A stretch of 32,458 bases of DNA from Microgenomates group bacterium Gr01-1014_5 (lineage in GTDB: Bacteria > Patescibacteriota > Microgenomatia > UBA8517 > UBA10165): contig VMGE01000002.1 in NCBI GenBank assembly GCA_007376395.1, forward strand, positions 143,118-175,575, written 5' to 3'. The notes beneath the pieces were generated by a model that saw only the letters and a list, made by a program, of their open reading frames with translations, had not been told where the DNA came from and did not search any database. Positions 27,097-28,598 of this stretch are shown here, one piece after another; the stretch's first letter is position 1, and each line of letters starts with the position of its first letter. Position numbers and translations under genes: made by a program.

Positions 27097-27147
27097 TCAC
27101 GTAGTGAGCGCACATATGGTTCTGGCGAGCCAGGTTCATATGAGTGT
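27097..27147 (-). repeat. 5' leader hairpin of tRNA-Arg
   Basis: ACACTCATATG-AAC-CTGGC-TC-GCCAG-AAC-CATATG. Confidence 0.7.
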
Positions 27148-27156
27148 TTTTAATTT

Positions 27157-27708
27157 TTAACCCTCGAGTTGAACTCTTTTTGAAAGCCAGGAGGCAGCTT
27201 TATCTAAAAAGTTTGGCGCCGCTTCTTCATAAACGAGCCTTTCCTCGAGCTCGCGTCGCAAACGTTCTTTGTCTTGGCTTTGGATAACCATTTCCAGCCT
27301 CCACGGAGCTCTTACAGCCTCAACAATTAACAGTTCTGTCCCAAACGTTCCGAAACGGTCAGAAAACCAAAATCTCGTCAATTCATCCCAACCATACTTT
27401 TTACCCGCAAAATAAAGTCCCTTGTTAGTTAACTTATGTTCGACCTCTTCAGGCGGAATTGTCGAGAGCACGTAAAGTAAAAAATATAAAGCCGCTATCA
27501 CCGCTACCGGCAATAACCCTTCCAAAAAGAACATAACTAAACCAACAAGAATAGCGATCGCTCCAACAGTCGTAAAAAACTGCCGGTCGCGCCTCTTAAA
27601 TGGTCTAACTGGGGCACGCCAGGTGAAAAGATCTTCTTCGCGAACGTTTTTCAAAGTGCTCTCGGCGTCATCTTGCAGGGTAGTATGGGCTTGTTTTTCG
27701 GGCTCCAT
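27157..27708 (-). CDS. Hypothetical 2-TM membrane protein with PH-like C-terminal domain
   Basis: W.AP.RPFK.R, two TMs, then TNKGLYF...YGWDELTRFWF. Confidence 0.75.
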   Translation of the reverse strand: MEPEKQAHTTLQDDAESTLKNVREEDLFTWRAPVRPFKRRDRQFFTTVGAIAILVGLVMFFLEGLLPVAVIAALYFLLYVLSTIPPEEVEHKLTNKGLYFAGKKYGWDELTRFWFSDRFGTFGTELLIVEAVRAPWRLEMVIQSQDKERLRRELEERLVYEEAAPNFLDKAASWLSKRVQLEG

Positions 27709-27727
27709 TGCAGGGTTTTGTGCTCTA

Positions 27728-27751
27728 AGTATACCACTTTTCTGGTATAAT
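27728..27751. promoter_or_regulatory. Divergent extended -10 promoters
   Basis: TGGTATAAT (+, 27743-27751) and TGGTATACT (-, 27736-27728). Confidence 0.7.
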
Positions 27752-27760
27752 GGCTAGGTT

Positions 27761-27797
27761 TGGTAGGTCGCACAAGCAAAGCTTGTGCTTCCTTCCA
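27761..27797 (+). repeat. 5' leader hairpin of tRNA-Ser(GCT)
   Basis: TGGTAGGTC-GCACAAGC-AAA-GCTTGTGC-TTCCTTCCA; begins as a near copy of TGGTGAGGTCGCA. Confidence 0.7.
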
Positions 27798-27803
27798 TTT
27801 CAT

Positions 27804-27891
27804 GGTGAGGTCGCATAGCTGGTCCATTGCGGGGGATTGCTAATCCCCTGAGTCGAATAGGCTCACGCGGGTTCGAATCCCGCCCTCACCG
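27804..27891 (+). tRNA. tRNA-Ser(GCT)
   Basis: GGTGAGG/CCTCACC-G; GGGGA-TTGCTAA-TCCCC; long variable arm. Confidence 0.96.
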
Positions 27892-27892
27892 C

Positions 27893-27963
27893 AACGTAAT
27901 AAATTGTTACACAATTTAAACGTTGCTGGAACGTAAAATTACAAAATAATTTGTTCGTTTCGC
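27893..27963 (+). repeat. Trailer element, variant second hairpin
   Basis: Identical to the other copies up to 27934, then an AT-rich alternative hairpin ending CGTTTCGC. Confidence 0.85.
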
Positions 27964-28048
27964 CCTATGAACCTGTTTTTAAACAGGTTCTCTCAACTCA
28001 CCTTGCACAAGTTAGAGAAGCTAACGCGTGAGTTTTGAAACGAGTTTT

Positions 28049-28309
28049 ATGTACTATACGTACGTTCTGTTCAGCTTAAAGGACAAAAGCTTTTATATAG
28101 GTTACAGTTCTAATCTGAAAAAACGAGTAAAAGAACATGCGCAAGGAAAATCCTTGGCGACAAAACACAAAAGACCATACAAACTAATCTTTTATGAAGG
28201 ATTTATTAATAGAATTGACGCCAAGAATAGAGAAGAGTATTTAAAAAGCGGTTGGGGGTTTAGAAGTATAAATAAAATGTTAGTAAAAACACTTGGTGAG
28301 GTCAGATAA
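28049..28309 (+). CDS. Small stand-alone GIY-YIG endonuclease
   Basis: YYTYVL, FYIGYSSNLKKRVKEH, LIFYE, A..RE.YLKSG.G. Confidence 0.93.
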   Translation: MYYTYVLFSLKDKSFYIGYSSNLKKRVKEHAQGKSLATKHKRPYKLIFYEGFINRIDAKNREEYLKSGWGFRSINKMLVKTLGEVR

Positions 28310-28349
28310 GAACCTGCGCTAGCGCGCAGAACCTTGTCTTTCTCTCCGC
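28291..28349 (+). repeat. 5' leader hairpin of tRNA-Ser(GGA)
   Basis: ACTTGGTGAGGTCAGATA is repeated at 28355-28372; AGATAAG-AAC-CTGCGC-TAGC-GCGCAG-AAC-CTTGTCT. Confidence 0.85.
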
Positions 28350-28358
28350 GTACAACTT

Positions 28359-28442
28359 GGTGAGGTCAGATAGCGGTTTATTCTACGCGCTTGGAAAGCG
28401 CGCGAGCGCAAGCTCACGCGGGTTCGAATCCCGCCCTCACCG
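28359..28442 (+). tRNA. tRNA-Ser(GGA)
   Basis: GGTGAGG/CCTCACC-G; CGCGC-TTGGAAA-GCGCG. Confidence 0.96.
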
Positions 28443-28443
28443 C

Positions 28444-28512
28444 AACGTAATAAATTGTTACACAATTTAAACGTTGCTGGAACGTTTCCCGCAAAACGGG
28501 ATTACGTTCCGC
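28444..28512 (+). repeat. 65-nt trailer element plus duplicated CCGC
   Basis: AACGTAAT...ATTACGTT flanked by CCGC on both sides, followed by CA. Confidence 0.95.
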
Positions 28513-28543
28513 CAATCAAAGATTTTATGTTGCTAAGACATTC

Positions 28544-28589
28544 GGAGGGTCGGATAAGAACCTGCGCTATGCACAGAACCTTGTCCTCC
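28544..28589 (+). repeat. 5' leader hairpin of tRNA-Ser(TGA)
   Basis: GGAGGGTC-GGATAAG-AAC-CTGCGC-TAT-GCACAG-AAC-CTTGTCC-TCC. Confidence 0.85.
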
Positions 28590-28598
28590 TTTGAATTA

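Follow-up and report, generated by a model that had tools for sequence, protein, structure and literature searches.

Small palindromic repeats of bacteria include the repetitive extragenic palindromes (REP) and bacterial interspersed mosaic elements (BIME), the Correia repeat enclosed elements (Correia/CREE), the Rickettsia palindromic elements (RPE) and the enterobacterial repetitive intergenic consensus (ERIC). Insertion sequences of the IS200/IS605 type enter 3' of a short target, beside a subterminal hairpin, neither duplicating that target nor leaving an inverted copy of it. The T-even phages (T4/T6) encode the GIY-YIG nuclease SegB, described in the cited portions of two reports as cleaving tRNA genes and driving amplification locally (PMC2330249, PMC13096335). 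The present work concerns a stretch of 32,458 nucleotides, referred to below as the window, from the genome of Microgenomates group bacterium Gr01-1014_5 (C7:143118-175575; genome of 930,562 bases in 16 contigs; coordinates without a contig label are window positions). In this window three tRNA-Ser genes are preceded by a copy of their own first 12-18 bases, which lies within a stable hairpin. No description of such tRNA leaders was found in the literature. The hairpins look like insertions rather than purpose-built tRNA devices, and they are probably an insertion-duplication footprint akin to REP or miniature inverted-repeat transposable elements (MITE), being local copies of a hairpin repeat that is dispersed in this Microgenomates-type lineage of the candidate phyla radiation (CPR).

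The recurrent layout of these loci is X-TA|AG-[apex]-CTTG-x'-few bases-(u)X-TA|R-gene, whereby X directly repeats the beginning of the gene that lies downstream, x' is an imperfect inverted copy of X, and the second direct copy, 8-45 nt long, continues into the intact gene; the first direct copy is called X1. The conserved apex, TA|AG-AAC-CU-[4-8 bp stem, short loop]-AG-AAC-CUUG, is termed the AAC module. Like the REP/BIME-type repeats, the AAC module is an imperfect palindrome of 30-40 nt, multi-copy and mostly extragenic, which often lies after stop codons or in leaders, is often tandem and is patchy among relatives. Unlike them, it combines its conserved apex with a locus-specific outer stem, whose two strands repeat the neighbouring gene end, once forwards and once inverted, and with long direct repeats of variable length, while the genes for proteins resembling REP-associated tyrosine transposases (RAYT) carry other hairpins here. 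The multi-copy extragenic palindrome of a REP/RAYT system is thus present (11 matches in the own genome; 49/121 genomes), yet the two of three Y1 transposase genes in the own genome that have clear flanking hairpins are not flanked by this repeat. Neither the terminal inverted repeats nor the fixed-length target duplication of MITEs are seen, as the AGAACCT blocks are direct and the repeats span 8-45 nt. The AAC module is probably an undescribed variant of the small palindromic repeats, one that duplicates and inverts its target.

Three further systems share features with these loci. At the integrase attachment sites (attL/attR) of tRNA genes the tRNA likewise stays whole, with part of its end repeated on the far side of the insert; here, however, only 41-46 nt separate the repeat copies, instead of kilobases, with no open reading frame (ORF) between them, the 5' end is the part duplicated, an inverted copy is present, no integrase gene stands beside the insert, and the starts of protein genes are targeted as well. 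The IS200/IS605 elements resemble the hairpins in having a fixed short target directly 5' of the hairpin and a strand-specific orientation, and Y1 homologues occur in the genomes, whereas here the target is duplicated and also copied in inverted form, and the hairpins found beside Y1 genes differ from the AAC module. With the SegB-type systems, as far as the cited portions describe them (PMC2330249, PMC13096335), the loci have in common small GIY-YIG genes that abut tRNAs, tRNA alleles exchanged between close strains, and partial tRNA copies. The same portions give a T-loop motif as the site that SegB recognises (PMC2330249, PMC13096335), while the TA|R junctions of the present loci fall within the first third of the tRNA, counted from its 5' end. 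In this genome 5/12 GIY-YIG-like paralogues are tRNA-adjacent and tRNA alleles have been swapped, but the number of hairpins does not track that of GIY-YIG genes, whose products are putative nucleases here.

Self-copies in the tRNA leaders of the window

The genome contains 43 tRNA genes, and ARAGORN calls in the window tRNA-Ser(CGA), Arg(GCG), Ser(GCT), Ser(GGA) and Ser(TGA) together with one transfer-messenger RNA (tmRNA). An earlier note on this DNA had pointed to a hairpin copying the tRNA 5' end in front of four of these genes, namely tRNA-Arg(GCG) (27024-27096, minus strand), tRNA-Ser(GCT) (27804-27892, plus), tRNA-Ser(GGA) (28359-28443, plus) and tRNA-Ser(TGA) (28599-28683, plus), and all four copies are indeed there. 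The Ser-GGA copy is exact over 18/18 positions (28291-28308 against 28355-28372), 4 of the 18 nt lying upstream of the tRNA. A one-base deletion separates copy and tRNA both in Ser-TGA, with GGAG-GGTCGGATA at 28544-28556 against GGAGAGGTCGGATA at 28599-28612, and in Ser-GCT, with TGGT-AGGTCGCA at 27761-27772 against TGGTGAGGTCGCA at 27803-27815. The Arg copy, ACACTCATA (27148-27140, minus strand), agrees with GCACCCATA at 7/9 positions.

The strength of these copies was gauged for all 43 tRNA leaders by comparison with the 5' end of the tRNA that follows; tRNAs with a different amino acid supplied the control 5' ends. Against the own tRNA, the score is 14 for Ser-GGA and 9 for Ser-TGA, each attained by 0/39 controls, and 8 for Ser-GCT, attained by 1/39. 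The Arg copy falls outside the best 16 of the 43 leaders and by itself is not above chance. The leaders of Pro-GGG, Pro-CGG, Glu-TTC, Thr-CGT and Gly-CCC hold hairpins or tRNA-like stubs, yet this test does not single them out. The four leader hairpins of the window have folding energies of -26.3, -23.0, -11.2 and -20.3 kcal/mol, with z-scores of -3.9, -3.6, -1.9 and -5.4.

An AAC/AAC internal loop with CUG..CAG and a compensating outer stem, which the earlier note had ascribed to three of the hairpins, is found in those of Ser-GGA, Ser-TGA and Arg. In the Ser-GGA leader (plus strand) X1 occupies 28291-28308 and equals tRNA positions -4 to +14 with 0 mismatches; it is followed by the module AG-AAC-CTGCGC-TAGC-GCGCAG-AAC-CTTG at 28309-28336, which R1, the covariance model of the AAC module used for the genome searches, matches at C7:171422-171455 (E 2e-11). 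The segment 28337-28354 comprises x' (TCT-T-TCTCTCC, an imperfect inverted X1), delimited from sequence and fold, and the spacer GCGTACA, after which the second direct copy (28355-28372) continues into the intact tRNA. The last codons and the TAA stop of a small GIY-YIG nuclease-like ORF (28049-28309, plus strand; the label comes from reading its translation) lie inside this X1, and if the hairpin insert is subtracted the ORF would run on to a TAG within the D-loop of tRNA-Ser(GGA).

The Ser-TGA leader (28540-28598, plus strand; sequence, R1 match and fold) is built in the same way. The native leader ATTC and X1 take up 28540-28556, the AAC-loop module matched by R1 28557-28583 and x' 28584-28596, with a TA at 28597-28598 between x' and the tRNA; x' pairs back to 28540-28556 with G.T wobbles, spanning X1 and reaching the native ATTC. 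In the Arg-GCG leader (27114-27148, minus strand) the weak stub ACACTCATA is joined to the module CATATG-AAC-CTGGC..GCCAG-AAC-CATATG at 27143-27114, an R1 match (C7:170230-170259, E 4.7e-8). The Ser-GCT leader hairpin (27761-27797, plus strand; sequence and fold) lacks the AAC/AAC loop and has the plain apex AAGC-AAA-GCTT. Here a second module, TA|AGCAAAGCT|TG, replaces the AAC module within the common layout: X1 TGGTAGGTCGCACA at 27761-27774, the small apex AGCAAAGCT at 27775-27783, x' TGTGC-T-TCCTTCCA at 27784-27797, and the second repeat copy at 27803-27817, which runs into the tRNA. An extended -10 box, TGGTATAAT, can be read immediately 5' of this hairpin; a consensus promoter scan made no call at the extended -10 boxes, whose assignment is by eye. 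A scan of 25500-31500 with Rfam 15 at E<=1 gave tRNA, tmRNA and weak chance matches only, and no family for the leaders.

A dispersed module and its TA|R junction

The AAC/AAC hairpin is a covarying multi-copy module that is not specific to tRNAs. A pattern search of the genome finds the motif also away from them: on C1 before an ORF that reads as enolase-like, on C5 after the stop of an ORF, at C7:117010 and C7:7870, and as two tandem copies adjoining the gene for RNase P RNA. An alignment of 18 copies taken from six genomes gives nATAAGAACCTG..CAGAACCTTGTn with the structure ((((((...((((((.....))))))...)))))), in which 92% of cells pair; 7/12 pairs show double changes, the covariation score is attained by 0/500 shuffles, and a T.G pair is conserved in 17/18 copies. 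R1 gives 11 matches in the own genome, including intergenic sites before protein genes and the two tandem copies near RNase P RNA. Among 121 sampled genomes of the order 49 have matches, with 1-25 copies each, distributed as 10/10 genomes in family f1 (up to 25 copies), 2/3 in f2 and 36/107 in f3. Only 3/150 other genomes of the phylum have any, one of them 17 copies, and in these distant genomes TAAGAACCT..AGAACCTTG is kept almost letter for letter and arrays with a 42-nt period occur. The possibility, raised in the earlier note, that the pattern would be absent from other tRNAs and other genomes is not borne out, since at least 12 kinds of tRNA gene elsewhere carry it and its stems covary.

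A scan of 113 candidate hairpins in the fetched loci (anchored score >=8) finds the 5' flank again downstream of the hairpin in 48/113, versus 8/113 for the upstream control. After removal of 16 artefacts between neighbouring array units, 97 hairpins were classified. The repeat ends in a same-strand tRNA in 15/97 (at position 9 in nine, 14 in five and 15 in one), a tRNA lies within 120 nt with a weaker repeat in 11/97, the antisense 3' end of RNase P RNA is involved in 1/97, other repeats, at arrays and protein-gene starts, make up 20/97, and no repeat is seen in 50/97. Among the loci found by the model only, 25/78 hairpins are followed within 150 nt by a tRNA on the same strand, 12 kinds of tRNA being represented, and orientation near tRNAs amounts to 25 leaders, 7 trailers and 2 antisense cases.

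The base that follows the second repeat copy is G in 18 cases, A in 10 and T in 1, and the junction is thus defined by the sequence TA|R and not by one set tRNA position; the places with which it coincides are U8-A9|G10, A14|R15 and, in L043, L060 and L151, A21|G22. The G of CTTG always stands opposite the T of TA, and is thus part of the module. The TAA contained in TAAG was also considered as a stop-codon device; an in-frame stop (frame >=50 codons) results in 14/87, another frame is open to the same point in 12, and the effect would be modest at most.

Sites other than tRNA 5' ends display the same architecture. The first codons of protein genes are framed by it in L042, L050 and L076, the repeat of L042 being perfect over 18 nt and ending ...ATGTCGAGAATA|G at the gene start. 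In L105, in L107 and, at C7:42579-42730, in the own genome the module lies antisense at the RNase P RNA 3' end, and a further site is the antisense 3' end of a tRNA-Gln. The RNase P RNA candidate of the own genome scores 94.9 bits, slightly below the Rfam cut-off, and the copies next to it are situated between two converging terminator-like hairpins, a position in which an RNA role is hard to see.

The 13-mer AAGCAAAGCTTGT, which forms the apex of the Ser-GCT hairpin, is a second dispersed mini-hairpin family, sharing the TAAG..CTTGT base with the AAC module. It is markedly over-represented, occurring in 64/121 genomes of the order with up to 19 copies and its reversed control in 0, and its sites in the own genome include C1:24834, C7:170891 and C16:37227. 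In 30 sampled copies the direct-repeat signal equals the control (2 versus 2), and 2 copies lie in tRNA leaders; the duplication pattern thus mainly belongs to the AAC module.

Origin of the leader hairpins

Close relatives carry both filled and empty alleles of the leader hairpins. With a 183-amino-acid ORF next to tRNA-Arg as query, three metagenome loci (L123-L125) were retrieved that are 93-97% identical in that ORF. In L124 and L125 the promoter ...tggtataatggctaggtt continues directly into TGGTGAGGTCGCATAGC without the Ser-GCT leader hairpin, and the 43 extra bases of the own genome correspond to this hairpin plus one repeat copy. In L123 ...gtcattt is followed directly by GGAGAGGTCGGATAGCGG without the Ser-TGA leader hairpin, for which the own genome has 55 extra bases. 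As both hairpins are also missing in more distant relatives, the filled state is the derived one. The Ser-GGA leader is common to the own genome and L123, and the Logan contigs of four public runs show no hairpin-less joint at it.

These loci have also exchanged genes. The own tRNA-Arg(GCG) and its leader are almost wholly unlike their counterparts in L123-L125, though both flanks are near-identical, and in L123 the Ser-GCT gene has given way to another allele, with a 3' stub of the old gene remaining. The Logan contigs of the four runs reveal a related strain in which the Arg region is replaced, 115 bases being skipped and 94 others present instead, and which is without most of the GIY-YIG-like gene. 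The Ser-GGA leader of L125 belongs to a different tRNA allele, in which X1 and tRNA both read GGAGAAGTCAGATA (GGAGAAG) against GGTGAGG in the own genome, while x' and spacer differ from it by one base. X1 thus changes with the tRNA, and either conversion or a fresh duplication keeps it identical to the beginning of the tRNA.

An insertion with duplication of its target is the most probable account. The module would arrive at a TA|R near a gene end, leaving X1 on its left and, on its right, x', a few bases and a second direct copy that runs into the gene; the net effect would be an insertion plus target duplication, whereby the gene start is rebuilt and the old start persists as the 5' arm of a long hairpin. 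The event would take place at the DNA level, presumably beginning with a break or nick at TA|R, and might proceed by snap-back or template-switch synthesis, or by short-homology recombination that copies an existing module. Most often the site is a tRNA gene, whose conserved U8-A9|G10, A14|R15 and A21|G22 supply TA|R within the first ~20 bases, where a duplication can restore the gene. A DNA-level origin is further favoured by the copy-number pattern, the patchiness, the arrays, the empty sites and the non-tRNA and antisense sites. The variable outer stems point the same way: a wobble excess, the expected sign of selection on RNA, was looked for and is absent (G.T 13 versus A.C 12). Of the two possibilities named in the earlier note, minihelix-like decoys or insertion scars, the second has the better support, with the repeat dispersed away from tRNAs and sister strains free of the Ser-GCT and Ser-TGA hairpins. 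Decoys find no support, because the acceptor-like stem is followed by a D-side extension with no T-loop motif or other T-arm equivalent, and because the module also stands before protein genes and antisense to RNase P RNA.

Several observations weigh against an insertion footprint. Conservation across the phylum extends to the loop bases, the T.G pair and 9+9 bases of the flanks, which suggests that a protein reads them. The 25 leaders and 7 trailers on the tRNA strand, as opposed to 2 antisense cases, and the change of X1 in step with the tRNA in close relatives also fit a function as RNA. Half of the classified set (50/97) has no detectable direct repeat. Moreover, x' is already imperfect where the direct repeats are perfect (L047, L114); a plain insertion does not explain x', and its imperfection in young-looking cases calls for several steps or for copying from a donor.

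The search for an enzyme tells on the same side, since none could be assigned among the GIY-YIG, Y1 transposase and reverse transcriptase families tested. The 0.93-Mb genome encodes 12 paralogues of the small GIY-YIG-like ORF, among them those at C1:62937-63170, C1:37129-37323, C15:20504-20713, C14:23469-23672 and in the window (28049-28309), and 5 of the 12 end 6-69 nt before a same-strand tRNA. As the mobilising enzyme this family fails on copy number, for genome G132 has 17 hairpins and 0 GIY-YIG matches, and five hairpin-free genomes have 1-3 matches each. Y1 transposase genes (Y1_Tnp) occur in 5/5 hairpin-rich and 2/5 hairpin-free genomes tested, and the own genome has three of RAYT-like type, but the two with clear flanking hairpins are accompanied by the CACAC..GTGTG type and not by the AAC module. 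A retro-element origin was set aside, reverse transcriptase (PF00078) being present in 1/5 hairpin-rich genomes and in 0 copies in the own genome. The RAYT-like Y1 genes in the region of C7:53906-54601 and C7:76708-76947 are bracketed by CACAC..GTGTG hairpins of their own, a sequence pattern that points to a second, separate REP-like system in this genome.

The alternative that survives best, though we consider it unlikely, is a functional leader of pre-tRNA or mRNA, whereby a dimeric protein or a processing nuclease would recognise AAC/AAC as RNA, and X1/x' would form a masked antisense that can rearrange to pair with the 5' end of the gene, controlling RNase P processing or translation start. 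Such a role would suit loop bases and closing pairs that are invariant amid covarying stems, a loop region (5'-AGAACCU/3'-UCCAAGA) that reads as two-fold symmetric, and modules that follow promoters and lie on the tRNA strand in 32/34 tRNA-adjacent cases; it would also suit the shared GGAGAAG of X1 and tRNA in L125, next to an x' and spacer almost unchanged. The earlier remark that the 3' strand of the leader may pair with the 5' strand of the real tRNA holds in silico: in minimum free energy folds of the whole Ser-GGA and Ser-TGA precursors x' is predicted to pair with the tRNA 5' strand and X1 with the 3' acceptor strand, and x' still captures the tRNA 5' strand when X1 is removed. These folds suggest that the insert creates an antisense which X1 could mask if the leader folds first; such a masked antisense would select for retention of X1 after insertion, whatever the origin of the insert. 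A leader device is nevertheless hard to reconcile with sister strains that have the same promoter-tRNA units and no hairpin, with such leader hairpins at only 4/43 tRNAs of the genome, with patchy numbers of 0-25 copies per genome, with tandem arrays and copies between converging terminators antisense to RNase P RNA, and with variable stems that show no wobble excess; nor do the leaders match an Rfam family in the region scanned.

Repeated replacement of tRNA cassettes is a more doubtful source of the stubs. Here tRNA genes would be cut by tRNA-linked nucleases of the GIY-YIG homing type and repaired from another allele, which would introduce a different tRNA together with the hairpin of its leader, while the first bases of the resident gene would stay behind as X1. 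The five GIY-YIG paralogues upstream of tRNAs, the exchanged Arg-GCG gene and leader between near-identical flanks, and the swapped Ser-GCT of L123 with its 3' stub speak for such a process, and the own Ser-GCT X1 starts GGTAGGT, like the other (L123) allele. SegB of T4/T6 offers a precedent, at least in the portions cited, where it cuts tRNA genes and drives local amplification (PMC2330249, PMC13096335). The X1 of Ser-TGA and of Ser-GGA, however, match their own allele, hairpin and GIY-YIG copy numbers are unrelated, as in G132, and x', the arrays and the protein-gene sites are left unexplained. Chance similarity or ordinary decay of tandem tRNA duplications, for which the 7/9 Arg copy that does not exceed its controls and a truncated tRNA-Gly(TCC) copy before tRNA-Gly(CCC) might be adduced, is most improbable, being already contradicted by the 18/18 Ser-GGA copy, the Ser-GGA and Ser-TGA scores reached by 0/39 controls each, the same architecture and conserved apex in many genomes, the covariation, the direct-repeat scan and the filled and empty alleles.

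The insertion-duplication footprint is thus preferred, and the AAC module family accounts for a recurrent oddity, namely that a tRNA gene may follow a copy of its own beginning. Such self-copies could be taken for regulatory RNAs or pseudo-tRNAs by annotation pipelines and in searches for RNA structures. Despite the tiny genomes of CPR bacteria, several families of hairpin repeats are tolerated in the present one. A more far-reaching proposal, which we put forward tentatively and with less than even confidence, is an undescribed kind of DNA movement, in which a hairpin lands at TA|R and copies its target forwards and backwards by snap-back or template switch, so that a stem specific to the site arises and the gene is restored, all without any known family of transposase; instead of this, or in addition, a two-fold symmetric AAC loop read by a conserved protein and a masked-antisense stem might act as a switch of tRNA maturation. 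If insertion does build target-specific stems and restore the gene, it would represent a compact natural form of templated insertion at essential genes, and the hairpins could be used to trace recent gene flow among strains. Read as RNA instead, the hairpin would constitute a new leader element with an effect on tRNA maturation.

Neighbouring genes and further repeats

The tRNA-Ser genes of the window also have related 3' flanks. An exact two-hairpin trailer of ~70 nt is common to Ser(GGA) (28444-28515) and Ser(TGA) (28684-28752), and the Ser(GCT) trailer (27893-27934) equals its first 42 nt. A minus-strand copy with 100% identity lies at 24947-25018, after an ORF ending at 25045. This trailer looks like a common terminator or repeat cassette.

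Directly 5' of the GIY-YIG-like ORF of the window is an 86-nt segment (27965-28050) that contains the perfect palindrome GAACCTGTTTTTAAACAGGTTC and recurs at 5 further sites in the genome (82-94% identity) and in several relatives. It may be the conserved leader of this selfish gene family. Downstream of the tRNA-Ser cluster, 28907-29582 holds two small neighbouring ORFs of 77 and 131 amino acids, which, judged by their translations alone, resemble an antitoxin and a PIN-type toxin.

Partial tRNA sequences occur elsewhere in the genome as well. In the leader of tRNA-Gly(CCC), at C1:115815-115864, bases 1-25 of tRNA-Gly(TCC) are fused to its 3' acceptor strand, which makes this segment a cut-down tRNA-Gly(TCC) copy, reduced to the acceptor stem and the D arm. 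Between the Leu and Val tRNA genes, the spacers at C1:64687-64765 and C1:64958-65035 contain tRNA-like 3' ends with an encoded CCA, which ARAGORN does not call.

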